From positions 68,594 through 132,593 of IMG/VR virus record IMGVR_UViG_3300009506_000003: 64,000 bases of DNA; one strand, written 5' to 3'. The DNA comes from a virus. The notes below the pieces were generated by a model. That model made no database searches. It was given only the letters and a program-made list of their open reading frames with translations, and had not been told where the DNA came from. Numbering within the stretch: position 1 is the first letter of the stretch; each line of letters starts with the position of its first letter. Below, one piece after another: positions 32,634-64,000 of this stretch. Made by a program: the position numbers and the translations under genes.

Positions 32634-32995
32634 GGGCCCGACAGGTTTCGACGTGGACACGGAAGGAAGTGGGAGCGTGCCGCTGATGTATCGCAACAGC
32701 GTCAAAAAGCGATGCAACCTTCAACTGCCAACGACAACGTTGAGCAGGTCGCCCAGCGCCTCGCGGCGTAACAGCGACACCGAGAGCAGACGCCTGCTAT
32801 GCTCTCGGCGCCAAAAGCAGGATGCTGTCTTCATGAGGATGTCCGTCTTCGCATGAGGGCTCAAGACCAAACGGCTGGACAAGGGGTGTCGACCTGTCGG
32901 CGGGTACGGCGCACCGATAAAGAACACCGAATACGCACGTAGAGCTCACTCTGGAAGGTTTGCGGACCCCGGTTCGATTCCGGGCGGGTCCACCA
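32634..32995 (+). ncRNA. ssrA: tmRNA
   Basis: 5' GGGCCCGACAGGTTTCGAC; 3' T-arm GGTTCGATTCC and CGGGTCCACCA with G3-U70; tag frame 32727-32771 ANDNVEQVAQRLAA*. Confidence 0.95.
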
Positions 32996-33949: not shown

Positions 33950-34173
33950 TGCCGAAGATTCACGAGAGGGAAAGCCTTGTCAAAAGCGCCGAGCTGCAGC
34001 TCAGGGAAGCCATCGTCGAGATGATGAAGAGCTGGGACCTGACCACGTTCGAGACTATCCAGGTCTTCAACAAGGTCATGTCCGAGGAGATCGCGTCGGT
34101 CGTGAAGTACCAGATCCGCTTTGAACGTCACGGCAACTACGACACCCCAGGAGGGTGGGCAAAGGGGGAGTGA
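33949..34173 (+). CDS. Hypothetical protein
   Basis: Coupled ORF. Confidence 0.6.
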   Translation: MPKIHERESLVKSAELQLREAIVEMMKSWDLTTFETIQVFNKVMSEEIASVVKYQIRFERHGNYDTPGGWAKGE

Positions 34174-35123
34174 TGAGATCCATCGACAGCCTGGACGGGA
34201 CGAAGCGCCCGCATGGTACGCGCTCTCGTTACGTCTCCGGCTGCCGGTGCGGTGAGTGCAAAGAAGCCAACCGACTGGCGTACCATGAACGTCAGCAACG
34301 CGCGAAGGAGGCCGCTGCCGAAATCACCGAGACCAAAGAGGGCGCCCCTCAGCAATGGACGGACCCTCGGACTGGGAAGACCTACACGCGCATCTACAAG
34401 CGGGCGTGCCCGGGGGTGAACGGAGACCCGTGCGAGTGGGGCTCTCATCTTCGCTCGGATTCGAAAGGCAGCGTGTGTGGTCGATGTCGGCTCAAACTCA
34501 CATGGAACGGCCTCGTTCCTTCTGACCGGGCTCGGGACCACATCCATGCACTCAGTCGCCGCGGGGTAGGGTACAAGCAGGTAGCGGACGCCGCCGGCGT
34601 CGCCGAGTCCATTGTGGCCAAGATCCGTTCCGGGGAGCGAAAGAACATCCGGGCCCAAGCGGAGAAGAGGATCCTGGAGGTGGACATCGGTGCTCGAGCA
34701 GACCACGCTCTGGTACCGGCCGGTCCCTCGTGGAAGCTCCTCAACAAGCTCCTCAAGAAGTACTCCAAGGCGGAGCTCGCCCGCCGGCTCGGGTCCGAGG
34801 CCAAGAACCCAGCCCTGCAGGTGTCGAAGAAAGAAGTGACGGTCAAGAAGGCCCACCAGATTCAGAAGCTCTACAACGATTGCATGGAAGAGCAGAAGTT
34901 CATCGACACCTACGTTCCCATCTGTACTCGATGTGGCTACTCGCACAAGAAGCCGGAACGTCTGGCTCGACTCAAGAGAGCACTGCCGGCAAGGGCGCAC
35001 GACATCAGGGACTGGTGGCCGTGCACCTACGGTATCCACCCTGACCCAGTTGGGGAGAGACGGCTCTACCGAGACCTTCACGATCTCGGCGCCGTGTTGG
35101 TGAATGGCATCTGGAGGCTCTGA
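34173..35123 (+). CDS. Zn-finger/HTH DNA-binding protein
   Basis: HGT...Y..GCRC.EC; Cro/XRE-like HTH GYKQVADAAGVAESIVAKIRSG. Confidence 0.7.
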   Translation: MRSIDSLDGTKRPHGTRSRYVSGCRCGECKEANRLAYHERQQRAKEAAAEITETKEGAPQQWTDPRTGKTYTRIYKRACPGVNGDPCEWGSHLRSDSKGSVCGRCRLKLTWNGLVPSDRARDHIHALSRRGVGYKQVADAAGVAESIVAKIRSGERKNIRAQAEKRILEVDIGARADHALVPAGPSWKLLNKLLKKYSKAELARRLGSEAKNPALQVSKKEVTVKKAHQIQKLYNDCMEEQKFIDTYVPICTRCGYSHKKPERLARLKRALPARAHDIRDWWPCTYGIHPDPVGERRLYRDLHDLGAVLVNGIWRL

Positions 35124-35199
35124 AAAGGGGTAACGCTTTTTGGCATAAGGGTAATGTCGGAAAGCAATTACCTCAAAGCTCAAAGGCAGGAGAGAAGAC

Positions 35200-35748
35200 A
35201 TGTCCGAAATCACAATCACAGAGGCACTAGCCGAGATCAAAACCATCGGCAAGCGCCTCTCGAAGCGTCGCCAGTTCGTCATGGACCATCTGGTCCGAGT
35301 CGACCGGATGAAGGATCCGCACGAGGACAAAGGCGGCTCCAAGAAGGTCATCGAGCAGGAGCTCCAGGGCATCAAAGACCTGGAGGGCCGCATCGTTGGC
35401 ATTCGGTCGGCCATCAACAAGGCCAACCAGACGACCGAGCTCACCATCGGCAAGATCACCCGCAGCATCGCGGACTGGATCATCTGGCGGCGGGAGGTGT
35501 CCGCCGGCGAGAAGCAGTTCCTCAGCGTGATGCGGGAGGCCATCAACAAGACCCGGGGCCAGCGCATCGGCCTCCAGATGCCCATCCGGGCGGCGGGGTC
35601 GCCAGCCGACATCCAGGAGTCGGGGTTCGAGATCAACCTCGACGAGAAGCACCTGGCCGAGGACATCGAGGCCATCGAAGAGGTCCTGGGATCTCTGGAC
35701 GGGAAGCTGTCGCTCTTGAACGCGACAACGACCATCCAAGTGGAGTAG
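35200..35748 (+). CDS. DIP1984-like coiled-coil protein
   Basis: ITITEALAEIK...IRSAINKANQTT...SIADWI.WR...LDGKLSLLNATTTI pattern recognised from memory; own ATAAG promoter at 35145. Confidence 0.65.
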   Translation: MSEITITEALAEIKTIGKRLSKRRQFVMDHLVRVDRMKDPHEDKGGSKKVIEQELQGIKDLEGRIVGIRSAINKANQTTELTIGKITRSIADWIIWRREVSAGEKQFLSVMREAINKTRGQRIGLQMPIRAAGSPADIQESGFEINLDEKHLAEDIEAIEEVLGSLDGKLSLLNATTTIQVE

Positions 35749-35757
35749 ACTCAAGTT

Positions 35758-36041
35758 GCCTTCAACAGCGAAGCGGGAAAAGGATCGGCAACCAACAAGC
35801 AACGGACTACTAATCCGTGACGCTTGGCTTTGGAAGAGCCAAACAACATGAAAGCTCAGAGGTCATCAAGCTCAAAGCTCACCCCCGTGGAGGCGAGGTT
35901 CGCCTGCGAAGCGGGTCAAGAAAGCTCAATGCTCAGGCCTCAAAGCTACATGAAATCCGTCATCACCCTGACCCCGGCGGAGACGTCGGGGAAGCGCGTG
36001 TCGTTCAGCGTGTCCCCAGGTGGCGGCTGCTGACTGGAGGC
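35758..36041 (+). ncRNA. Candidate structured RNA with NNGCTCA heptamer repeats
   Basis: Closing helix GCCTTCA-A-CAGC / GCTG-AC-TGGAGGC; two tracts of heptamers; terminator follows. Confidence 0.55.
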
Positions 36042-36053
36042 TTCTCTTCAAGC

Positions 36054-36093
36054 ACCCGGGACTCACTTCGTGTGGGTCTCGGGTGTTTTTTTA
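36054..36093 (+). terminator. Intrinsic terminator
   Basis: CACCCGGGACTCAC ... GTGGGTCTCGGGTG followed by T7. Confidence 0.8.
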
Positions 36094-36143
36094 CCCACGC
36101 GACGGGATACGTGATTTTGAGAACCGCTACGTGGGCACTCTCG

Positions 36144-36362
36144 TTATCCTACATCCCCTTCAAGCATGTCTGCTGCCTCCTCTGAGGACAGCTCTCCGAG
36201 CTGGACCATGAGCTCGATGGTCTGGTGGGACGCCATCTGCCATCCCAGGCACCCTTCCTCTCCACACTTGCAGTGTACCGCATGGAGGCCGAGAGAGCGC
36301 AGGGTTTGGGTCGTCATTCCTGACCGCCGCGCGTAGGCTCTCTCGAACTCTTCCTTGGTCAC
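36144..36362 (-). CDS. Hypothetical protein
   Basis: GTG start coupled to the upstream stop; GGAGG RBS. Confidence 0.55.
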   Translation of the reverse strand: MTKEEFERAYARRSGMTTQTLRSLGLHAVHCKCGEEGCLGWQMASHQTIELMVQLGELSSEEAADMLEGDVG

Positions 36363-36682
36363 TGAACTTCCTCCAGGCGCTTGATCACAGCTTCCGCGGC
36401 TGACTTGTGCGCTGCATGGAGAGCGCAGCAATGCTCTTCGGTCTGGCAGGAGTGCGGGGTGTTCCTGATGATGTGCTCGAGGTCCCGGCTCAGCTCTTTG
36501 GCCAGCTCCTTCCGCGCTTCGGACTTGAGCTGGTCGAGGAAAGGTACCAGAGCGTCGAAGAGCTCTTTGGTCAGGGCTCTGGCCTTCTCATGGTCCGCCC
36601 CTCGCTCCCCTCGGATGTAGAGCTTCGAGTGGAAGGGGAACCAGTTGATGAACCTCTCTGCCCAGTGGAGCTGCACTTTCAT
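36359..36682 (-). CDS. Hypothetical protein
   Basis: Coupled ORF. Confidence 0.6.
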   Translation of the reverse strand: MKVQLHWAERFINWFPFHSKLYIRGERGADHEKARALTKELFDALVPFLDQLKSEARKELAKELSRDLEHIIRNTPHSCQTEEHCCALHAAHKSAAEAVIKRLEEVQ

Positions 36683-37026
36683 AGGACGCCCTCCAATCTC
36701 TCAGCGAGGTCTTCTGCATCGCCTTTGATGATGTACCCGTCCGCCCCCGAGTCTTGGACCGCTCGAGCGAGCTTGTCAACGGAGCTGTTCGAGAAGAGGT
36801 ACACCCTGGGCGCCGGGCGGTGCTTCTTGATGAGCTTGACGAGCTCGGAGCCATCCATGGCCGGCATGTGAAGGTCGACCAGCACGACGTCAGGCTTCTC
36901 CCGTAGGACGAGCGCAGACGTCCCGAAGGGCGTTCTGGTAGTGATCACCTCGTGCCCCATGCCTTCAATCACCATCTGGGCGCACGTCAGCATCACGTGC
37001 GAATCGTCGACGATGAGGACCTTCAT
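36679..37026 (-). CDS. Stand-alone response regulator receiver (CheY-like)
   Basis: MKVLIVDDS...PDVVLVDLHMPAMDG...LFS...GADGYIIK. Confidence 0.9.
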   Translation of the reverse strand: MKVLIVDDSHVMLTCAQMVIEGMGHEVITTRTPFGTSALVLREKPDVVLVDLHMPAMDGSELVKLIKKHRPAPRVYLFSNSSVDKLARAVQDSGADGYIIKGDAEDLAERLEGVL

Positions 37027-37217
37027 CGCTTGGCCGCGCACGCCTTGTGCGCAATCCCCTCCCGAGGGAAGAGGCAGTAGTGATGCTGCCCCGCCATCGT
37101 GCTGACCGGGCGTCCACAGATGATGCACGGCGCCGAAGACTTCGAGCGGTCAACGAGAGGCCGCCGGCGATTGCCCTCACGGCCTGGTTTCGTTCTGGGT
37201 GCCTTGGTGTCCATCAT
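37023..37217 (-). CDS. Hypothetical protein
   Basis: GGAGG RBS; coupled. Confidence 0.5.
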   Translation of the reverse strand: MMDTKAPRTKPGREGNRRRPLVDRSKSSAPCIICGRPVSTMAGQHHYCLFPREGIAHKACAAKR

Positions 37218-37543
37218 ATCCTCCGGAAGTTCCTGGTGGCCGTCGCCGTTCGCCGGCGCGTCGGCCGTTTTGCTCGAGCAACAGTTGGTACCGGCACAGG
37301 AGCTGGTGTGAGCTGGTGCAGGTTGGTGCTGAGCCACCCGACCGCCTCCAAGCTCTCCGCGCGTCGAAGCTCTCTCGTGATCGCCTTGAGCTCCTCTTCC
37401 TCATCCGGCGGGGGCGCCGGCGACCGAGGCAGTGAGGTGGTCGAGTACGTAGGGGTGCTGTTGACATAGATCGTGACCGTCGCGGTACCGTCGCCGGTCA
37501 AGTCACCGTTACCAAATGAATAGAATGGAGGGATCGCCGCCAT
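37214..37543 (-). CDS. Hypothetical protein
   Basis: ORF track. Confidence 0.45.
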   Translation of the reverse strand: MAAIPPFYSFGNGDLTGDGTATVTIYVNSTPTYSTTSLPRSPAPPPDEEEELKAITRELRRAESLEAVGWLSTNLHQLTPAPVPVPTVARAKRPTRRRTATATRNFRRI

Positions 37544-37598
37544 GGCGATCACTTTACTTGTCACAACGGGTGCGTGTCACCCATCTCAGGAGAAAGTC

Positions 37599-38003
37599 AT
37601 GAAGAAACTCATCATCCTTCGGGGTCTGCCTGGTTCCGGGAAGTCCCGTCTCGCTCTTCAACACGAAGGGGCAGTCATCTGCTCTGCCGACCACCACTTC
37701 GAGAAGGAGGACGGCACCTACGACTTCAACCCCGCCGAGCTCGGCCGCGCGCACATGCTCTGCCAGTTCAAGGCGCTCGACGCGATGTCCTCTGGGGCGC
37801 CCGTGGTGGTCATCGACAACACCAACGTGCGCCACTGGGAGTACCTCATCTACCAGAGGATGGGAGACGTCTTCGGGTACCAGCAGGAGGTCCTGCCTGT
37901 CGGCGGCCGGTCCTACGACGACGTGCGTGAGTACGCCGCTCGCAACGTCCACGGGGTCCCCGAGATGAAGATCCTCGAGATGGCCTACCGATGGGAAGAG
38001 TGA
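37599..38003 (+). CDS. P-loop kinase (AAA_33 / polynucleotide kinase-like)
   Basis: LIILRGLPGSGKS, ICSAD.HF, VIDNTN, RNVHGVP. Confidence 0.85.
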   Translation: MKKLIILRGLPGSGKSRLALQHEGAVICSADHHFEKEDGTYDFNPAELGRAHMLCQFKALDAMSSGAPVVVIDNTNVRHWEYLIYQRMGDVFGYQQEVLPVGGRSYDDVREYAARNVHGVPEMKILEMAYRWEE

Positions 38004-57452: not shown

Positions 57453-57543
57453 TGGTGGGTAGGGAAGGATTCGAACCTCCAGTGGCCACTGTCGTGACTC
57501 CGGGTCTACAGCCCGGCGCGTTCAGCCATTTCGCTACCTACCC
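57453..57543 (-). tRNA. tRNA-Tyr(GTA)
   Basis: Cloverleaf, long variable arm, CT-GTA-GA loop, CCA. Confidence 0.93.
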
Positions 57544-57546
57544 ACG

Positions 57547-57620
57547 TGGAAGAGGAGCTGGGAATCGAACCCAGATGAACTGGTCCAAAGCCAGTTGCCC
57601 TGCCATTGAGCGACTCCTCC
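57547..57620 (-). tRNA. tRNA-Gln(TTG)
   Basis: ACTGG-CT-TTG-GA-CCAGT; CCA. Confidence 0.92.
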
Positions 57621-57623
57621 GTT

Positions 57624-57699
57624 TGGATGGGGAGGCGGGGGTCGAACCCACAACCTCCTGATTCAGAATCAGGCGCTCCACCAGTTGAGCTACTCCCCA
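57624..57699 (-). tRNA. tRNA-Gln(CTG)
   Basis: CCTGA-TT-CTG-AA-TCAGG; CCA. Confidence 0.92.
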
Positions 57700-57700
57700 A

Positions 57701-57774
57701 TGGAAGCCGAGACCGGATTCGAACCGGTGATGCCTGGGTTGCAGCCAGGTGCCTTTCCACTTGGCTACTCGGCT
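57701..57774 (-). tRNA. tRNA-Cys(GCA)
   Basis: CCTGG-CT-GCA-AC-CCAGG; U73; CCA. Confidence 0.93.
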
Positions 57775-57775
57775 T

Positions 57776-57849
57776 TGGGGTGACCGCGGAGAATCGAACT
57801 CCGACCATCGGGGCCACAACCCGACGCTCTACCATTGAGCTACGGCCAC
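57776..57849 (-). tRNA. tRNA-His(GTG)
   Basis: TCGGG-TT-GTG-GC-CCCGA; C73; CCA. Confidence 0.93.
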
Positions 57850-57956
57850 AAGGGGACCTCGAGCTGCCTCGGGAGCCCCTTCTGGTCGCAGACGTCAATG
57901 TCGTAGAGCTTGCGCTCATCGCAGTATCTCCAAGTTGTGGACAGAGAGATCCGCGC

Positions 57957-58007
57957 TCAGGCTTGAGCCGGATATTGATGACAGTGCTGGTAGAAGCGAC
58001 TGACCAT
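57957..58007 (-). CDS. Leader peptide MVSRFYQHCHQYPAQA of the His/Cys/Gln/Tyr tRNA cassette
   Basis: ATG 6 nt after -10 TACACT; codons TAC CAG CAC TGT CAT CAA TAT. Confidence 0.75.
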   Translation of the reverse strand: MVSRFYQHCHQYPAQA

Positions 58008-58013
58008 GAGACG

Positions 58014-58043
58014 AGTGTACGACAGGCAGGCAGGACCTGACAA
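58014..58043 (-). promoter_or_regulatory. sigma70-type promoter of the His/Cys/Gln/Tyr cassette
   Basis: TTGTCA-N18-TACACT. Confidence 0.7.
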
Positions 58044-58412
58044 CTAGATTTTCTCTATCGTGTCACCCTTGTCGCTGCAGAGGTACACCGGGAGCTGTGT
58101 GCGCCCGACCTTCCTCTCACCGTTCTGGGTGAACCAAATCAACCTGAAGATGGGGCAGTCCTGCTCATCATCGTGGACAACCACACACGGCCGCGCGGGA
58201 CCATCGAAGAGCATGTGCCTCGTGAGCCGGCCATCATTGCTGATGTCGCTCTCATCGACCTCGAAGTGGTCTCCGTCCCCGTATTCCACCTCGCTCACTT
58301 CACCAAAGACAATCCAGTGAGCTCCTGCGGGGATGGTTCTGTCATATTGGGGGTCGGGGCGCTCCGGGTTTGGAACGCGCCTGTACGCCTGCTTCTGGAA
58401 CTTCAGAATCAT
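58044..58412 (-). CDS. Hypothetical protein inside the tRNA cluster
   Basis: 122-aa ORF; purine-rich RBS region. Confidence 0.6.
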   Translation of the reverse strand: MILKFQKQAYRRVPNPERPDPQYDRTIPAGAHWIVFGEVSEVEYGDGDHFEVDESDISNDGRLTRHMLFDGPARPCVVVHDDEQDCPIFRLIWFTQNGERKVGRTQLPVYLCSDKGDTIEKI

Positions 58413-58483
58413 TTCCTACCTACCTTCCTGTCTGTCCTGCCTGCCTGTCCTCGTCGTAGCACAGGTCACGGACAGAAGGAAAG

Positions 58484-58575
58484 TGGCGGAAGGTGGAGGA
58501 ATCGAACCCCTACGCTTTTGACGCACCATGCTGGTTTTCAAGACCAGTGGCTGGACCATCCCGCCGGCACCTTCC
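58484..58575 (-). tRNA. tRNA-Ser(TGA), probably 8/4 fold
   Basis: CTGGT-CT-TGA-AA-ACCAG; acceptor GGAAGGTG/CACCTTCC; G73; long variable arm. Confidence 0.88.
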
Positions 58576-58577
58576 GT

Positions 58578-58652
58578 TGGTCGGGGTGGGCGGCTTCGAA
58601 CCGCCGACCTCTTGTCCCCCAGACAAGCGCGCTACCCCTGCGCTACACCCCG
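58578..58652 (-). tRNA. tRNA-Pro(GGG)
   Basis: CTTGT-CT-GGG-GG-ACAAG; CCA. Confidence 0.92.
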
Positions 58653-58880
58653 GACCTTGTCAAAGAGGTAGCCCAAACTGCGGCTCCCCTGCTCTTCCTC
58701 TGACATCGAGAAGCCGTAGAACGTGTCGAGGCCCGTGTGCTCCACACCGTCGTCATCGACGATGGACACTCCATTGCCGAGACCGGCCTTCTCGAAAGCC
58801 TTCTGAGCTGACTCCTTGTCTTTGAAGCGCAGCTCATCCGTGCAACATCCACAATCCAACTTCACGTACACCGTGATCAT
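58632..58880 (-). CDS. Hypothetical protein whose stop codon lies inside tRNA-Pro(GGG)
   Basis: AGGAG RBS; phage-like codon use. Confidence 0.55.
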   Translation of the reverse strand: MITVYVKLDCGCCTDELRFKDKESAQKAFEKAGLGNGVSIVDDDGVEHTGLDTFYGFSMSEEEQGSRSLGYLFDKVRGVAQG

Positions 58881-58899
58881 GACGATCTCCTGTTTCGAG

Positions 58900-58975
58900 T
58901 GGTCGGGCTGGCCAGGCTCGAACTGGCGACCTCCTGTCCCCGAGGCAGGCGCGCTACCATCTGCGCTACAGCCCG
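58900..58975 (-). tRNA. tRNA-Pro(CGG)
   Basis: CT-CGG-GG loop; CCA. Confidence 0.9.
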
Positions 58976-58976
58976 A

Positions 58977-59051
58977 TGGTCGGGGTGGTCAGGATCGAAC
59001 TGACGACATCCGGCTCCCAAAACCGGCGCGCTCCCGCTGCGCTACACCCCG
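58977..59051 (-). tRNA. tRNA-Pro(TGG)
   Basis: CCGGT-TT-TGG-GA-GCCGG; CCA. Confidence 0.92.
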
Positions 59052-59067
59052 ACAGTGCGAGAAAAGT

Positions 59068-59157
59068 TGGCGGAGCAGACAGGATTCGAACCTGCGGACG
59101 CCTCACGACGCCTACGGGTTAGCAACCCGCTGCCTTCATCCGCTCGGCCACTGCTCC
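59068..59157 (-). tRNA. tRNA-Ser(GCT)
   Basis: GCGGG-TT-GCT-AA-CCCGT; long variable arm; G73; CCA. Confidence 0.93.
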
Positions 59158-59165
59158 GCTGTGAT

Positions 59166-59279
59166 TCAGCGACTCAGTGGCGAACTGGGTGACGGGGATG
59201 GTGATGGGGAGGACGAGCTCGGGCACAGCACTGCGAGGTTGCAGTTGAGTCGTGCGCGAGTTTCGTTGAGCATCAACAT
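59166..59279 (-). CDS. Leader peptide MLMLNETRARLNCNLAVLCPSSSSPSPSPSPSSPLSR of the Ser/Pro tRNA cassette
   Basis: GAGGAGG RBS; 15 consecutive Ser/Pro codons; stop 8 nt before tRNA-Ser. Confidence 0.75.
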   Translation of the reverse strand: MLMLNETRARLNCNLAVLCPSSSSPSPSPSPSSPLSR

Positions 59280-59299
59280 GATGACGTCCTCCTCAGTCG

Positions 59300-59328
59300 A
59301 ATGTACGATAGCTGTGAGTGTTCGTCAA
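59300..59328 (-). promoter_or_regulatory. sigma70-type promoter of the Ser/Pro cassette
   Basis: TTGACG-N17-TACATT. Confidence 0.75.
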
Positions 59329-59334
59329 CAACTC

Positions 59335-59547
59335 ATGGAGTGGTCAGTCACAAGAATCGAGGGAGTGGTGCGCCACCTCGTCCCGTCCCTCACCAATGTA
59401 GAGGTCAGCTTCCCCTCTCCGGGAGTGGTGCGCGTGCTGATCACAGCCGAGAACGCATGGGGCGTGCAGAGCAGGGTCCAGTCAGTACTCGACCAAGCCC
59501 TGCCCGCCTCCATTCAGCGTGTTGAGGTGTTGGTTGTCAGAGGCTAG
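59335..59547 (+). CDS. Hypothetical protein
   Basis: Short ORF filling the gap; weak RBS. Confidence 0.4.
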   Translation: MEWSVTRIEGVVRHLVPSLTNVEVSFPSPGVVRVLITAENAWGVQSRVQSVLDQALPASIQRVEVLVVRG

Positions 59548-60005
59548 TCGTCAGATGCTTCTGCCCACGCAATGGTGACCGCCCAGTGAGACAAAACTGG
59601 GTCGAACGCTTTGAACGCGGAAGGGTTGTCGATGCCCATCGTCATCTTGCCGTAGCTGAATCCGTTCTCTCCCCAGTCGGCAGTGTATTTCCCACCACGG
59701 GTGTTGAGCTCGACGCTCCCGCTTTCCGGACCACTGTTGGTCACGGTAGTGAGGCCCCACCCGCCTTCCTCGTCCTTCACCATGTCGATGTAGTAGTAGT
59801 CCCCTGGGACGAACTCCTTGCCACCAGCGTCGAAGGACGGTCCACGGAAGTTGAGGGTCATGTCCCCAGAGGGGGTGAACTTCCAGAACTGGGAGTTCTC
59901 TTTGTTGTGCTTGCTCTGCACAACGGGGCCTAGCTCGACGACAAGCGTCTTGTCCCACTTCTTGGTAACGGAAAGGCAACGGAATTTGGCACGTACCTGG
60001 CTCAT
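59544..60005 (-). CDS. Hypothetical phage protein (VRAKFRC...EN..FWKFTPSG)
   Basis: GGAGG RBS; internal duplication pattern. Confidence 0.7.
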   Translation of the reverse strand: MSQVRAKFRCLSVTKKWDKTLVVELGPVVQSKHNKENSQFWKFTPSGDMTLNFRGPSFDAGGKEFVPGDYYYIDMVKDEEGGWGLTTVTNSGPESGSVELNTRGGKYTADWGENGFSYGKMTMGIDNPSAFKAFDPVLSHWAVTIAWAEASDD

Positions 60006-60090
60006 CTCTTCCTCCAAACGGTTGAATGTGAGCCGCGCTGTTGACCTGGATCGCGACGTGCCAGTTACCTCCACCGTAGCATGGTCAAGG

Positions 60091-60690
60091 TCAGAAGTCA
60101 GCTTCTTCGAGCAGCGTGTAGGTGAAGCCATCCCCAAACAAGGATGAGGACTTCTTGGCCAGCGAGTACAAAAACTGGTGCTGGAAGGGGTCAGCCACCA
60201 CTTGGCAGCCAGCACTCCACTTGTCCACAACCGTACTGGCCTGGCTAGACCCAGCGTGGTGGAGGTTGATGCCGAACATCCCTTCCTGGATGGAATCCGG
60301 GTCGAGGTCGAGGACCTCGTCCTTGTTGTTGTCCCGGTAGACTTTCAGAGGGCTCTTCTGCACCAGAGCTGGATACCCGCTGTGGAGCCCGAGCTTGAAA
60401 GCGCCCCGGTACTGTCCTGGGACCAGGATGGCGGTACCGTTCACGTTCATCGGGTGCTCCCGGTAGTAGACACCGGGGTCCGTGGTGGCGGGGAACATGA
60501 AGCAGTTCCATCTGTCATTGAAAAGGTACATCACGCCGATCACATCGTTGAAGGTGTTGGCGCGGTTGTCCAGGGTCCGAATGCCGAAGATGTTGAGGTC
60601 GTAGCCACCCTTCGACTGGTCACCGAAGACGAGGTAGTTCTTCGAGCGCATGACGGCTTTGATGAGCTTCGCATCGCTGAGTACAAGCAT
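60091..60690 (-). CDS. Putative peptidoglycan hydrolase/endolysin (YkuD-like H...WSAGCQV)
   Basis: LNIFGIR...FND...TTDPG...GINLH...WSAGCQV...FTYTL; AGGAGG RBS. Confidence 0.6.
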   Translation of the reverse strand: MLVLSDAKLIKAVMRSKNYLVFGDQSKGGYDLNIFGIRTLDNRANTFNDVIGVMYLFNDRWNCFMFPATTDPGVYYREHPMNVNGTAILVPGQYRGAFKLGLHSGYPALVQKSPLKVYRDNNKDEVLDLDPDSIQEGMFGINLHHAGSSQASTVVDKWSAGCQVVADPFQHQFLYSLAKKSSSLFGDGFTYTLLEEADF

Positions 60691-60722
60691 GTAGGCCTCC
60701 TATCCAGAAGAGCCTACCACGA

Positions 60723-60806
60723 TGGTGCGGCGGGAGGGAGTCGAACCCTCACCCTTTCGGCCCGGATTTTAAGTCCGGTGTGTCTACCTGATTCCACCAC
60801 CGCCGC
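60723..60806 (-). tRNA. tRNA-Leu(TAA)
   Basis: CCGGA-CT-TAA-AA-TCCGG; variable arm; A73; CCA. Confidence 0.93.
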
Positions 60807-60807
60807 G

Positions 60808-60892
60808 TGGTGCGCGGGGCGGGATTCGAACCCGCATGCCGAAGCACCGAGGTTTGAGCTCGGCGTGTCTACCTTGCTTCCACCACCCGCGC
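60808..60892 (-). tRNA. tRNA-Leu(CAA)
   Basis: CCGAG-CT-CAA-AC-CTCGG; CCA. Confidence 0.93.
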
Positions 60893-60966
60893 TCGAGCTG
60901 TGCGCCCTGGAACCCTGTCACAGCTCAATGGCGCCCTCCTATGTGCCTGACGCCACCCACTTCGAT

Positions 60967-61052
60967 TGGTGCCCGAGGAGAGATTCGAACTCTCACGCCG
61001 AAGCACGGGTTTCTGAGACCCGCGTGTCTACCAAAGATTCCACCACTCGGGC
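60967..61052 (-). tRNA. tRNA-Leu(CAG)
   Basis: CGGGT-CT-CAG-AA-ACCCG; CCA. Confidence 0.93.
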
Positions 61053-61053
61053 T

Positions 61054-61139
61054 TGGTCCGCGAGGGGAGACTCGAACTCCCACGCACAAGGCGCCGGTCC
61101 CTCAGACCGGTGCGTCTACCTGGATTCCGCCACTCGCGG
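61054..61139 (-). tRNA. tRNA-Leu(GAG)
   Basis: CCGGT-CT-GAG-GG-ACCGG; CCA. Confidence 0.93.
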
Positions 61140-61159
61140 ACGGGTTTGCTTGGGAGCTG

Positions 61160-61237
61160 CTAGCGCAACAGGGATAGCAGCCCGGTGCTAAGGTGCGGGC
61201 CGCGTAACAGGGACAGGACTCTGTGGTCGCGCTGCAT
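61160..61237 (-). CDS. Leader peptide MQRDHRVLSLLRGPHLSTGLLSLLR of the Leu tRNA cassette
   Basis: ATG 6 nt after -10 TAAGGT; 8 Leu codons (CTG x4, TTA, CTT, CTA, TTG). Confidence 0.72.
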   Translation of the reverse strand: MQRDHRVLSLLRGPHLSTGLLSLLR

Positions 61238-61243
61238 GGTCAC

Positions 61244-61273
61244 ACCTTACGCGCTCCGAAGCCTCTTCGTCAA
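61244..61273 (-). promoter_or_regulatory. sigma70-type promoter of the Leu cassette
   Basis: TTGACG-N18-TAAGGT. Confidence 0.7.
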
Positions 61274-61351
61274 GTCCTCAAAAAACCATAGCCGTTTGCG
61301 TAATAAGGTCCCTGAAGCTAACTCTGTTCACTTTTCACTGGAGGATCTCAA

Positions 61352-62419
61352 ATGCAGGTAGCAGCATCCGCCGCAGGCCCTGAAAAGACGGGTCACGGCA
61401 AACGTCCTCGCATCTCTGTCAAAGAGAAGCGGAAGCAAATGGCCATCGAGCTCTTCGCCAAAGCGGTGGAAGAGGCCGAGAAGCCGGCTCAGTCAGACTT
61501 CATCGTCCCCAAAGTCGACTTTGCAATGATTGGCCCCAAAGAAGCCAAGGAGCTTCTCCAAAAGAGCCAGGGCAACAGAAAGATCCGTGAGCTTCACGTT
61601 CGCTGGCTGGAAAAAGTCATGCGTGACGGGAAATGGGTGTTCGGACCTCCCATCATCATCGATCTCAACGGAGTCCTCATTGGTGGGCACCACAGGCTCC
61701 ACGCCGTCATAAGGTCAGGGCTCTACGTTCCCATGACCGTCATGAAGGGGGCTGACCCGCAGCTCAACGAGTGGACCAACCAACACAAGGAAGCCAAACT
61801 GGGTGACGAGATTCATCGCTACGGGATGAACAACGCCAACGCGCGTGGGGCCATAGTGAGGTTGGCCGCCGAACTCACCGCCAAGAGGAGAATCCCCGTC
61901 AACTCCTTTAGCGACTATGCTGAGTGGGCTCGGGTCTTCAAGGGAGTCGACTGGGTGGTAGAGAATCTGGTGGGCAAAGACCCCTGGAGGAAATCATCCA
62001 TCACGGGAGCTTTCGCTTACGCCTACAACACTGACCCAGATGCCGTGAAGCTCTTCTGCACGAAGATGGTCACTGGGGAAGGCCTTTCAAAAACAGACCC
62101 GGTGCTGGCGTTCCGAAATTGGTTTCTTTGGTACACTGCTACCGACAAGGACAAGAAGGATGTCCGCAAGCACGCCATTGCAGGCGGTGGGGATGAGCGG
62201 AAGCGAGTCTACACGTTCAAGGTGCTGCACTGTATCCGTGCGGCTATCGAGAAGAAGAAGCCAAGAACCTTGAAGTCCTTGAGGATGGAAGTTTCTCTCG
62301 ACGATCTTGAGTACTTCAGGCAAGCCAACGAGACCAGGGCGGCCAAAAAGATGGTCAACTACTGGTCCGAGCCGAGGATGTCTTCCGAGGAATTTCTCTC
62401 GTACCTCAAAGAGGGGTAG
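61352..62419 (+). CDS. ParB-like N-terminal domain protein
   Basis: I.P..AKELL...NRKI...M..GKW...III...G.LIGGHHRLHAV; GGAGG RBS; ATAAG promoter at 61303. Confidence 0.7.
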   Translation: MQVAASAAGPEKTGHGKRPRISVKEKRKQMAIELFAKAVEEAEKPAQSDFIVPKVDFAMIGPKEAKELLQKSQGNRKIRELHVRWLEKVMRDGKWVFGPPIIIDLNGVLIGGHHRLHAVIRSGLYVPMTVMKGADPQLNEWTNQHKEAKLGDEIHRYGMNNANARGAIVRLAAELTAKRRIPVNSFSDYAEWARVFKGVDWVVENLVGKDPWRKSSITGAFAYAYNTDPDAVKLFCTKMVTGEGLSKTDPVLAFRNWFLWYTATDKDKKDVRKHAIAGGGDERKRVYTFKVLHCIRAAIEKKKPRTLKSLRMEVSLDDLEYFRQANETRAAKKMVNYWSEPRMSSEEFLSYLKEG

Positions 62420-62431
62420 AGGAGGTGCCCC

Positions 62432-63565
62432 ATGATAATGAGATTGAACCGAAATAAGAGCCTTCCGGACCACATCAGCGGGAGTGAACTCTTCACCATG
62501 ATCGAGCCCTACAAGGTCAAGGGGCCCGGAAGCAAGAGGTTCGGGCGCAAGAAGTTCACAAGGGACATCCTCAACGAGTACACCGATGAGGTCAACTTCA
62601 CCCCAAAAGCAATCGTCTACGACAAAGGAGACGGAGGAACCAAAGAGACAAGAGGACTCAACGAGAAAGAGGTCAGAAAGATTCTGCATTTTCTGCATAG
62701 GGATGGCTACATTGGCTCAGCAACCATCACTCTCCATAAGAGGTTCGGCCTTTCCAAGGATGAGAACACTGAGGTGGTTGGAGTCATAGGTCGAAGCTCT
62801 AGCAGCGCACCTCTTGAGGAAGCAGTGTCTCCTTCTACTCACTCATCTCCGCCTGCAGGGAAAAGAGAGACGTGGGGCGAAGCCAACTCTCTCCTCGTTC
62901 GAGCGGTAAAGAAGAACGTACCCCTTTCGAACCTGATCAGCTCACTCATCTCTGCAGGTCTCAGACAAGAGCCGTTACCGGCGGAAACTGTTCTGAGGCA
63001 AATGGAGCGCCTACGTGATTCTGGAGAGATCAACAAAGAGAGCCTCATCCAGTACAAGCGCAACAACGGAATAGCCGCCAGAGGAGGATACAAAAGGCAA
63101 AGAGCAGAGCCAGAGAGGGTGACCGAAGCCAAGTCTTCTTTGAAATCCCCATGGGGGAAGCATCAAAGCACCCTGCTGTCCAAGCTCATCAATGAGGTAG
63201 ACCCTCTACCTGGTGAGACAGGAGCTACCTATTTTGAAAGAGTGGCCGGGCAATTCAACGAGTCAGGATTGCGTGTGGTCACGGGCCCATCGTGCAGGAA
63301 GCAAGCTCCAAAACTCATTGGCAAGGGAATCACGAGTGAGCGATACTCTCTTGTCAATCGAAGTAGAGAGGAGAAGCTCCCCGCTGGGAGCCCCACTCCT
63401 ATCGAGAACGAGATCCAACGAAGAAAGGAAGAATCGTTGGGCATCAATCTCGAATCGGCTCTCACGGAAGAGGCAAAAGAAAAAGCCATTGAGATGTACC
63501 TCACTCCAGAAAGAAGGAGGGAGGCATACCGAGGCTATTTCAAGTCTTTGGGAGTCAACATATGA
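62432..63565 (+). CDS. Hypothetical protein
   Basis: AGGAGG RBS; 377 aa; lower GC than its surroundings. Confidence 0.6.
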   Translation: MIMRLNRNKSLPDHISGSELFTMIEPYKVKGPGSKRFGRKKFTRDILNEYTDEVNFTPKAIVYDKGDGGTKETRGLNEKEVRKILHFLHRDGYIGSATITLHKRFGLSKDENTEVVGVIGRSSSSAPLEEAVSPSTHSSPPAGKRETWGEANSLLVRAVKKNVPLSNLISSLISAGLRQEPLPAETVLRQMERLRDSGEINKESLIQYKRNNGIAARGGYKRQRAEPERVTEAKSSLKSPWGKHQSTLLSKLINEVDPLPGETGATYFERVAGQFNESGLRVVTGPSCRKQAPKLIGKGITSERYSLVNRSREEKLPAGSPTPIENEIQRRKEESLGINLESALTEEAKEKAIEMYLTPERRREAYRGYFKSLGVNI

Positions 63566-63571
63566 AAAGGA

Positions 63572-63603
63572 GAGGGGTGCCGTCTGAGCCCCTCTTTTTT
63601 AGC
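63572..63603 (+). terminator. Intrinsic terminator
   Basis: GAGGGG...CCCCTC then TTTTTTAGC. Confidence 0.65.
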
Positions 63604-63606
63604 GTG

Positions 63607-63682
63607 TGGCGGGAGTGGAGGGAGTCGAACCCTCAGCCATCGGGTTAACGGCCCGCTGCTCTACCATCTGAGCTTCACTCCC
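63607..63682 (-). tRNA. tRNA-Asn(GTT)
   Basis: CGGG-CC-GTT-AA-CCCG; G73; CCA. Confidence 0.9.
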
Positions 63683-63777
63683 GAGTGGGGTGGCGTCAGA
63701 GGTGCATTCCCCGTGACGCCGGCCTACCGTGACGAGACAAGATGCCTCTGCTCGCTCGTGAGGGCACATCCCCATAA

Positions 63778-63851
63778 TGGTGGACCAGGTTGGTGTCGAC
63801 CCAACGTCTCGAGCTCTTCAGACTCGTGCTAAACCCCTCAGCTACTGGTCC
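63778..63851 (-). tRNA. tRNA-Phe(GAA)
   Basis: CGAGT-CT-GAA-GA-GCTCG; atypical T-loop GTCGACA; CCA. Confidence 0.85.
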
Positions 63852-63858
63852 AAGTTTT

Positions 63859-63932
63859 TGGTGGAAGTGACAGGAATCGAACCTGCATCTCTCGGGTGCA
63901 AACCGAGGGCTCTCCCGTTGAGCTACACCCCC
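63859..63932 (-). tRNA. tRNA-Ala(TGC)
   Basis: CTCGG-TT-TGC-AC-CCGAG; G3-U70; CCA. Confidence 0.92.
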
Positions 63933-63940
63933 ACGCGATC

Positions 63941-64000
63941 TGGAGCCGGTGACAGGAGTCGAACCTGCAACCCTCTGCTTACAAGGCAGACGCTCTTCCG
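63941..64000 (-). tRNA. tRNA-Thr(TGT), 5' end outside window
   Basis: TCTGC-CT-TGT-AA-GCAGA; T-arm; CCA. Confidence 0.88.

Follow-up and report, generated by a model that had tools for sequence, protein, structure and literature searches.

Background

What is the RNA that follows a gene for a 182-amino acid (aa) protein in a large phage, and does it work together with that protein? The question was raised by virus record IMGVR_UViG_3300009506_000003, of which a stretch of 64,000 nucleotides (nt) was analysed; this stretch, hereafter the window, comprises bases 68594-132593 of the 132,593-base record, which is estimated to be 69% complete. An initial annotation of the window suggested that a DIP1984-like gene and a closed RNA downstream of it form a self-contained ribonucleoprotein module within one promoter-terminator unit, and that an oligomeric protein binds 7-nt repeats (heptads) in the RNA and represses its own translation. 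That reading held the RNA as a carrier of repeats. We show herein that the RNA adopts an elaborate fold, which covaries and includes a pseudoknot as well as a slot for a transfer RNA (tRNA). We favor the reading, at a probability of roughly 55%, that gene and RNA make up a conserved two-part phage module whose protein and structured RNA work together, and for which no prior description was found.

It is rare to find a structured RNA class that combines strong covariation and broad distribution with a protein partner of its own. Such classes, for example transfer-messenger RNA (tmRNA), ribonuclease P (RNase P) RNA, 6S RNA, signal recognition particle (SRP) RNA and CRISPR RNAs, have mostly proved to be central machines. 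The design described below, in which a nested tRNA is combined with single-stranded repeats of period 7, is unusual.

Results

A covarying fold on the transcribed strand

The closed RNA had been placed at 35758-36041 of the window. Exactly at these two positions lie the outermost bases of a helix, GCCUUC...GGAGGC, that closes the RNA and covaries in relatives; the RNA thus delimited starts 9 nt after the end of the 182-aa gene. An RNAalifold consensus, based on a MAFFT alignment of 19 full-length RNAs, contains 39 pairs, 34 of which show compensatory changes. A pseudoknot between 5' UGAGA and 3' UCUCA (GGGA with UCCC in the window) was read from the sequences and then added to these pairs. With the pseudoknot, 39 of the 44 pairs change on both sides, all 5 pseudoknot pairs show compensatory changes, and 91.7% of 830 cells are paired, as compared with 37.7-46.3% when the 3' partners were slid. 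None of 500 shuffles matched any of five covariation measures. Moreover, two G-U pairs are nearly invariant (columns 24-369 in 19/19 RNAs and columns 16-378 in 17/19); because these pairs would read C-A on the other strand, they fix the transcribed strand as the RNA strand. The window RNA itself folds with a z score of -4.46. That this is a genuine RNA fold, specific to one strand, covarying and passed on along with the protein, is practically certain.

The gene and the parts of the RNA are as follows:

35189..35194, + strand, ribosome-binding site GGAGAG (from the sequence), 5 nt before the ATG
35200..35748, + strand, gene for the 182-aa protein (from the list of open reading frames), ATG at 35200
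35757..35770, + strand, closing helix P1, 5' strand (alignment columns 11-24 with 369-383)
35774..35778, + strand, pseudoknot helix P2, 5' strand (columns 28-33 with 354-358)
35779..35851, + strand, variable slot, with two hairpins at 35802-35818 and 35824-35842 (from the fold)
35852..35881, + strand, heptad tract 1, four units: AAGCTCA GAGGTCA tc AAGCTCA AAGCTCA
35882..35915, + strand, hairpin between the heptad tracts (from the fold; an insertion in the alignment)
35922..35949, + strand, heptad tract 2, four units: AAGCTCA ATGCTCA GGCCTCA AAGCTAC
35938..36045, + strand, 3' domain (covariance model R1, 85.2 bits, E 1e-19), which holds the four elements below
35957-35961 with 36022-26, + strand, helix P3
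35972-35991, + strand, hairpin with a GAGA loop, followed by a second hairpin
36014-36018, + strand, P2, 3' strand
36028-36042, + strand, P1, 3' strand

P1 has 13 pairs, 9 with compensatory changes and 92.7% of cells paired. P2 has 5 pairs, 93.7% paired, and its 5' strand reads GGGA in the window and GAGA in most relatives. Helices 4-8 are 86-100% paired, again with compensatory changes. In the aligned RNAs the order of elements runs from a two-part P1 through a conserved GCGAAG-YGAGAGAA, the GAGA of which makes the pseudoknot, to the variable slot and then to two unpaired heptad tracts with a small hairpin between them, a hairpin that is larger in the window than in most relatives. AAAAYCC then leads into P3, and the 3' end consists of the GAGA-tetraloop hairpin, which is of the GNRA type, the second hairpin, the pseudoknot 3' strand and the return strands of P3 and then P1. 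Family members have a median length of 290 nt (range 244-357). Covariance model R1 represents the 109-position 3' domain only; the evidence for P1 and P2 comes from alignment counts, not from the search model. In the 132.6-kb phage record, R1 finds a single copy of the RNA.

Heptad repeats in two unpaired tracts

The coordinates initially given for both heptad tracts, for the repeat in the 5' untranslated region (UTR) and for the 182-aa reading frame proved exact. AAGCTCA occurs 24 times on both strands of the window, compared with 10.8 expected, and 0/100 shuffles reached that number; four copies lie within 77 nt in the RNA, and a fifth is at 35176. The period is not confined to the window. 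In 61 tracts, sequence identity is 0.39 at lag 7 and 0.35 at lag 14, as opposed to 0.25 in controls. Spacings between AAMG cores in the tracts are 7 in 85/232 cases, 14 in 29 and 15 in 21, while a spacing of 7 was found in 0/44 cases outside the tracts. The consensus of a unit is AA(A/C)G(C/U)UN, with about 3-5 units per tract across the family, and the tracts are unpaired in the RNAalifold consensus. Several 6-mers, such as AGCTCA, AAAGTT, AAAGCT and CTCAAA, occur about 10 times as often in the 300 nt past the gene as in 1088 control windows.

That the region is no RNA gene, and instead encodes a small protein (open reading frame 35824-36033 or 35817-36185) or is a DNA repeat such as iterons, deserves almost no weight. 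Frames of 69 and 122 aa are indeed present, but the longest closed frame inside the RNA measures 36 aa in the median and at least 60 aa in only 8/61 relatives; the period of 7 does not fit codons; and the compensatory changes and conserved G-U pairs mark an RNA. Both versions were rejected on these grounds.

A further pair of heptads lies upstream of the gene:

35172..35185, + strand, 5' UTR heptad pair CTCAAAGCTCAAAG, CTCAAAG CTCAAAG (from the sequence), 3 nt before the ribosome-binding site

Judged by its sequence and position, this pair is a possible operator. A pair of the form AAMG-N3-AAMG within 60 nt of the start codon is present in 6/46 loci, compared with 36/5206 control windows and 0/500 shuffles, and a single YUNAAMG unit in 11/46 loci, compared with 284/5206 control windows. 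The enrichment is real, but it concerns a minority of loci. The autorepression initially proposed thus draws support from a minority of the loci.

Gene and RNA are inherited together

Covariance model R1 was applied to the surroundings of 51 viral homologs of the gene and of 14 homologs on genome contigs, all metagenome-assembled genomes (MAGs) from several phyla. It matched the window and 48/51 viral loci at E <= 1.2e-8, always on the strand of the gene. Two of the exceptions are a marginal match (L002) and a contig that ends 327 nt past the gene and shows the 5' motif (L024). The RNA was likewise found in 13/14 genome-contig loci, the 14th being cut inside the gene. The bins that hold module contigs belong to at least seven bacterial phyla. 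In 46/48 loci the RNA comes after the gene, and in 32/48 the gap between the stop codon and P1 is 5-23 nt. By blastp over the 51 loci, neighboring genes are not conserved; the widely shared "clusters" were antisense shadows of the gene itself. In this respect the proposal of a self-contained unit of gene and repeat RNA has stood up well: nearly all homologs possess the RNA, and the period-7 repeats are a property of the whole family. The initial annotation had named homologs without RNA or repeats as the finding that would speak against it, and this check came out in its favor.

The association was also approached from the RNA side with a 22-nt degenerate pattern of the RNA 5' end, which detects the canonical 5' motif only. 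Twelve stretches were found in viral contigs, 9 with the protein gene just upstream; the remaining 3 are coding matches in one phage. R1 was run on the 5 new viral stretches only and matched two of them (L153 and L192); R1 had already matched the contigs that carry the other 7. The metagenome contigs yielded 72 stretches. An R1 domain is present in 42, of which 41 have the gene and one offers just 133 nt of sequence on its upstream side. Three more have the gene on contigs that end before the 3' domain, and 27/72 have neither gene nor R1 domain and look like chance matches. Each assessable true RNA obtained with this motif adjoins the protein gene. The coupling persists as protein identity falls from 71% to about 25%, and it holds for GC contents of 36 to 73%.

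A pattern for the 3' motif was discarded as too loose in viral contigs, where 2 true RNAs were among the 80 listed of at least 120 stretches; a stricter version gave 3 stretches only. The three coding matches to the 5' pattern (L194 1000-1240, - strand; L195; L197) belong to one phage lineage and encode a small, very basic protein that ends in ...KPSVAKREKSERARRQKARDEQKRQRAKERRNRRNK and resembles ribosomal protein bS21, a chance match of the RNA pattern.

A DIP1984-type protein predicted to self-associate

The 182-aa protein has 903 homologs at E <= 0.001, nearly all of them unnamed metagenome or virus proteins, with P0002 (71% identity) and P0003 (61%) being the closest. The Atlas clusters that hold the family consist of 55-81% viruses. 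An AlphaFold2 model (mean predicted local distance difference test score, pLDDT, 92.6) consists of four long helices together with a small sheet to which both termini and a hairpin contribute, and an alignment of 32 members shows conservation of the N- and C-terminal strands and of many basic residues. When the model was compared with the PDB by Foldseek, 3kdq_C and 3kdq_A ranked 1 and 2 (E 3.7e-4 and 5.7e-4, probability 1.00; template modeling (TM) scores of 0.46-0.59, best match 0.51/0.59), with the next match at E 0.13. This uncharacterised protein of Corynebacterium diphtheriae is the sole convincing PDB neighbor, and the predicted structure indicates that the 182-aa protein shares the DIP1984 (3kdq) fold.

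The label "DIP1984-like" accordingly applies to the fold and not to curated family membership. NCBIfam DIP1984_fam (NF038048) aligned to residues 8-118 with 16.7 bits (E 0.0062), short of its curated cut-off of 70. Pfam gave no match at E <= 0.1, and DUF6847 (PF20935, gathering score 27 bits) gave none for the window protein at E <= 1; weak DUF6847 matches occur in 11/32 relatives (best E 1.9e-5), and in 0/3 MAGs holding module loci was DUF6847 found. A single-sequence search of the PDB returned only histone fusions at chance level (E 0.007) and a profile search nothing meaningful (best E 0.07), neither finding 3kdq. The protein is thus like the DIP1984/DUF6847 ("septicolysin") family in fold, with 3kdq as its best PDB match, but differs in falling below both curated cut-offs, in forming a viral clade and in having an RNA partner. 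The literature on DIP1984, septicolysin and DUF6847/PF20935 describes a function for neither the viral clade nor the DIP1984/DUF6847 family; in the accessible part of it, "septicolysin" is mostly an annotation label on Acinetobacter plasmids. Structure neighbors in BFVD are uncharacterised proteins of large cultured phages.

The oligomeric state that had been suggested agrees with modeling. A four-copy model gave a self-association score of 0.64, compared with 0.00 for the best control; the mark it passes was reached by 20/30 proteins solved as pairs and by 1/23 solved as single chains. Runs agree in at least 67% of contacts, with a partner pLDDT of at least 77, and the protein is hence modeled to self-associate. 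Residues 1-125 carry a net charge of +8, whereas the C-terminal third is acidic, and K14, K18, R19, K22, K23, R64, R69, R97, R98 and R119 are invariant or nearly so.

Does the RNA need the protein?

A number of observations weigh against a joint role of protein and RNA. A divergent homolog of 159 aa (L044) has no RNA within 4 kb according to R1. Gene order is inverted in L034 and L045, where the RNA comes first, and in six loci a distance of 300-1083 nt separates the gene from the RNA downstream of it; because order and distance vary in this way, strict co-transcription is not universal. A look for sequencing runs that contain the region listed no RNA run. Many metagenome contigs duplicate viral contigs, so that the counts are not independent, and the scan from the RNA side, which sees canonical 5' ends only, is supportive and not exhaustive. 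Co-inheritance would also be expected if the RNA merely needed the promoter of the gene. The 5' UTR heptad pair is missing from 40/46 loci, two of the six that have it (L013 and L050) are nearly the same sequence, and the number may be raised by ribosome-binding sites rich in purines. As to the protein, it is not basic overall (median isoelectric point 6.4, net charge about 0), and several of its conserved basic residues sit in the modeled dimer interface, where they may serve self-association instead of RNA binding. Finally, the four-copy model differs from its calibration, and its pass could reflect a memory of 3kdq.

Part of this would be accounted for by an RNA that acts alone or with a host protein, being stable and processed like tRNAs, with heptads that sponge a host protein or ribonuclease (RNase) or pair with host RNA. 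The protein would then owe its link to the RNA solely to transcription in common, or to a role of its own in that pathway. Consistent with such a role, the conservation and complexity of the RNA exceed the needs of a protein landing pad, the RNA often heads or sits inside tRNA clusters, and a tRNA can nest within it; the lack of overall basicity in the protein and the varying gene order and distance in a minority of loci point in the same direction. What this leaves unaccounted for is the near-perfect two-way coupling over the whole range of protein identity and GC content. Since that coupling holds while no other neighbor is conserved, promoter sharing alone is a poor explanation. We consider an RNA acting without the protein rather unlikely, and continue with the two-part module as the preferred reading.

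A slot that can hold a tRNA

In 15/61 RNAs, ARAGORN detected a tRNA in the slot, at a constant position (RNA positions about 40-135). Anticodons of these tRNAs vary, and three have odd anticodon loops. Rfam confirmed six of the 15, with tRNA matches inside the RNA in L003, L011, L014, L016, L019 and L025. In the window RNA, neither ARAGORN nor Rfam found a tRNA in the slot, which holds two hairpins instead. Also, the module often adjoins tRNA genes or arrays.

Abnormal anticodon loops, reported by ARAGORN as "tRNA-???" with 2- or 4-base anticodons, occur in L014 (4609-4683), L016 (4582-4660) and L035 (3388-3463), and in L045 (3586-3658), the last of which lies beside the RNA and is not nested. 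The slot tRNA of L038 was called Tyr(ATA). These elements may be tRNA mimics instead of working tRNAs. Large tRNA arrays lie within 4 kb of the module in L015 (24 genes) and L025 (14 genes), and in L016, L033 and L048 a tRNA gene begins 3-9 nt past the 3' end of the RNA.

Remote members in cultured phages

Carriers exist in culture, and the module is thus directly testable. A tblastn search of GenBank phages gave 45 records with identities of 23-30%, of which 25 are from phages of Pseudomonas, 18 of Vibrio and one each of Xanthomonas and Ralstonia; the carriers include jumbo and T5-like phages. Four records were opened, those of Vibrio phages pVp-1 and Pontus, Pseudomonas phage phiPsa315 and Xanthomonas phage XaC1; in all four, a gap of 365-445 nt without annotation comes after a gene of about 205 aa. 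The gap lies among tRNA genes in 2/4, and a peptidyl-tRNA hydrolase gene is nearby in XaC1. With filters off, R1 gave weak matches to the four gaps (E 0.012, 0.014, 5.5 and 5.7, among 28 listed matches). Closing-helix complementarity was read by eye in 4/4. The gaps of pVp-1 and phiPsa315, when folded, have a long closing helix (z = -3.2 and -3.9) that begins right behind the stop codon and extends to just short of a terminator. Identity at lag 7 over the four gaps is 0.456. On the strength of the closing helix, the two folds and the period-7 signal, we regard these RNAs as remote members.

PHROG 1491, which is labeled "tail fiber protein", matches the 182-aa protein at E 2.2e-16. In RefSeq the same label stands on remote homologs from Vibrio phages (L271 2498-3124, NC_055801; L272 2495-3118, NC_019529), and this is probably where the PHROG label comes from. 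It is likely to be wrong because of the predicted four-helix bundle and the tRNA-region context, and the module, if true, would correct it in both RefSeq and PHROG 1491.

A probable single transcript, and a possible cis-acting role

Gene and RNA are probably made as one transcript, since the spacer between them is too short for a promoter. The RNA is followed by a putative terminator:

36050..36092, + strand, intrinsic terminator, a 17-bp hairpin followed by U7 (from an inverted repeat and the fold)

Of the promoter-terminator unit originally described, only the terminator half has been borne out, in the window and in two cultured phages. A simple terminator scanner did not call the hairpin at 36050-36092, and across the family a crude test for a hairpin plus T-run after the RNA was positive in 2/61 cases as opposed to 8/610 random windows. 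A scan for sigma-70-like promoters over 34000-37500 gave 0 sites.

The 14-mer GGCATAAGGGTAAT at 35142-35155, around ATAAG, has 6 matches at no more than 3 mismatches, compared with 1.9 expected; CATAAGGGT is common to two of them, and other sites include 23844 and 49286. From its sequence, this 14-mer is a possible phage promoter motif.

Alternatively, the RNA could be a cis-acting 3' UTR that stabilises or regulates the mRNA upstream, or a processing platform from which RNase P and RNase Z deliver a tRNA, with no function in trans. The short distance to the stop codon in 32/48 loci, the fixed position of the tRNA in 15/61 members, and the terminator after the RNA in the window and in two cultured phages would all suit such an element. 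On the other hand, 46/61 members contain no recognisable tRNA, L034 and L045 have the RNA before the gene and others an ORF-sized (open reading frame-sized) gap in between, and a pseudoknotted multi-helix fold with conserved single-stranded heptads goes far beyond what an mRNA stabiliser needs. A purely cis-acting role is in our estimation quite improbable.

Comparison with known RNAs and systems

At E <= 10, nothing in Rfam 15 matched within 35758-36041. At the gathering score, Rfam 15 found only tmRNA and tRNAs in the whole window and only tRNAs in 18 related loci. No description of the module was found in the literature on DIP1984, septicolysin and DUF6847/PF20935 or with broader queries. 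A 2023 catalogue gives, in its accessible part, 8495 unnamed candidate RNAs from IMG/VR (PMC10690425), and the module RNA may be among them. As far as their accessible text goes, PMC11662646 and bioRxiv 10.64898/2026.09.22.753630 deal with other systems.

One parallel is offered by Bacillus. In the pairs TRAP-trp leader and HutP-hut mRNA, ring-shaped oligomers read evenly spaced triplets in single-stranded RNA, and HutP recognizes two sets of UAG triplets with 4-nt spacers, i.e., two tracts of period 7. The module resembles them in its short, evenly spaced, unpaired motifs, its two period-7 tracts and a protein modeled to self-associate; evenly spaced short motifs in unpaired RNA are indeed what it has, a likeness in the way of working and not membership in either group. 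It differs in that its protein, a predicted helical bundle with no Pfam match, has no relation to TRAP or HutP in sequence or fold, and in that its repeats lie in a dedicated, elaborate RNA instead of the leader of a regulated operon; protein binding would be argued here by analogy.

CsrA/RsmA bind GGA in hairpin loops of the sponge RNAs CsrB/RsmZ. As in those RNAs, many copies of a short motif are shown by one RNA, which could hold several copies of a protein. The module motif is AAMGYUN, however, and lies in unpaired tracts, the partner gene is adjacent and phage-borne, and no match to Rfam was obtained.

In type III toxin-antitoxin systems, the antitoxin consists of tandem repeats of about 30-40 nt upstream of the toxin, a ToxN/AbiQ-type endoribonuclease. 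The module shares with ToxIN the combination of a protein gene and a repeat RNA in a compact mobile unit tied to phage biology, whose neighbors are not conserved, and might be imagined as a harmful protein neutralised by its RNA. Repeat length, position and RNA architecture nevertheless differ, as the repeats are of 7 nt and lie within a folded downstream RNA instead of forming an upstream tandem array with units of about 36 nt, and the protein, a predicted helical bundle, has no nuclease-like match in Pfam or the PDB; PADLOC also had no match for the module. This analogy, drawn in the initial annotation, has thus fared poorly, and a toxin-antitoxin-like pair is very improbable.

Structured RNAs that combine a tRNA-like module with a dedicated protein are also known, namely tmRNA with SmpB and Y RNA (YrlA) with Rsr. 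The module has a closing helix between its 5' and 3' ends, a tRNA module, a pseudoknot and carriage by phages in common with these. Yet there is no covariance-model match in the region, the tRNA of the module is internal and optional, its heptad tracts have no counterpart there, and its protein has no relationship to SmpB or Ro. GOLLD and ROOL, which occur in phages and prophages and often lie near tRNAs, are large, ornate RNAs that have been reported as RNA-only assemblies. The module RNA is similarly phage-borne, structured, of unknown function and near tRNA genes, but at about 290 nt it is much smaller, without an Rfam match, and tied to one protein gene.

A proposed mode of action

It is more likely than not that the protein binds the module RNA. 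Copies of the protein might then dock on successive heptads in the way TRAP and HutP do on triplets, although we put this arrangement at somewhat less than even. In some phages, spare protein could bind the heptad pair next to its own ribosome-binding site and damp its own translation, a step we think doubtful. Where a slot tRNA is present, RNase P and RNase Z would release it, and the two remaining pieces of the RNA would stay joined through P1 and P2.

The surroundings of the module in the window are rich in RNA genes. A full-length tmRNA (Rfam 132.7 bits, tag peptide ANDNVEQVAQRLAA) lies at 32634-32995 on the + strand, 2.8 kb upstream of the heptad-repeat RNA, and tRNA arrays occupy 57453-64000 on the - strand, with 16 genes according to ARAGORN and 17 according to Rfam, one of which is cut by the end of the window; the total is at least 16-18. 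The setting is a large phage with its own translation-related RNAs, as judged from the tmRNA and the at least 16 tRNA genes. Because the module lies among tRNA arrays, a tmRNA and RNA-handling genes, our best guess is that the particle intervenes in translation or tRNA metabolism, or that it sequesters a host factor that binds or cuts RNA. In its fullest form, which we advance tentatively as something short of an even chance and less than the docking itself, the proposal is a widespread phage ribonucleoprotein in which a tRNA-capable scaffold RNA exposes 8-10 single-stranded heptads to be read by a DIP1984-fold oligomer, a device for taking over translation or tRNA supply or for disarming RNA-directed host defence. 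Sequence-specific binding of single-stranded RNA would then be the first function for the DUF6847/DIP1984 superfamily.

Neighboring genes

Upstream of the module, a 322-aa gene at 34155-35123 (+ strand) matches PHROG 1590 (unknown function) at E 3.6e-18 and has weak helix-turn-helix and zinc-ribbon/HNH-like signals; it is not kept beside the module in other phages. Convergent with the module is a gene at 36679-37128 (- strand) with a response-regulator receiver domain (PF00072, E 2.6e-19), which is unusual cargo for a phage. Further downstream, at 37542-38003 (+ strand), is a gene for an AAA_33 or polynucleotide-kinase-like ATPase (PF13671, E 1.2e-8; PHROG 2071, E 6.5e-24), the product of which also matches PHROG 505, "polynucleotide kinase", at E 1.5e-7. 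This kinase-like ATPase could be part of a regional RNA-repair theme.

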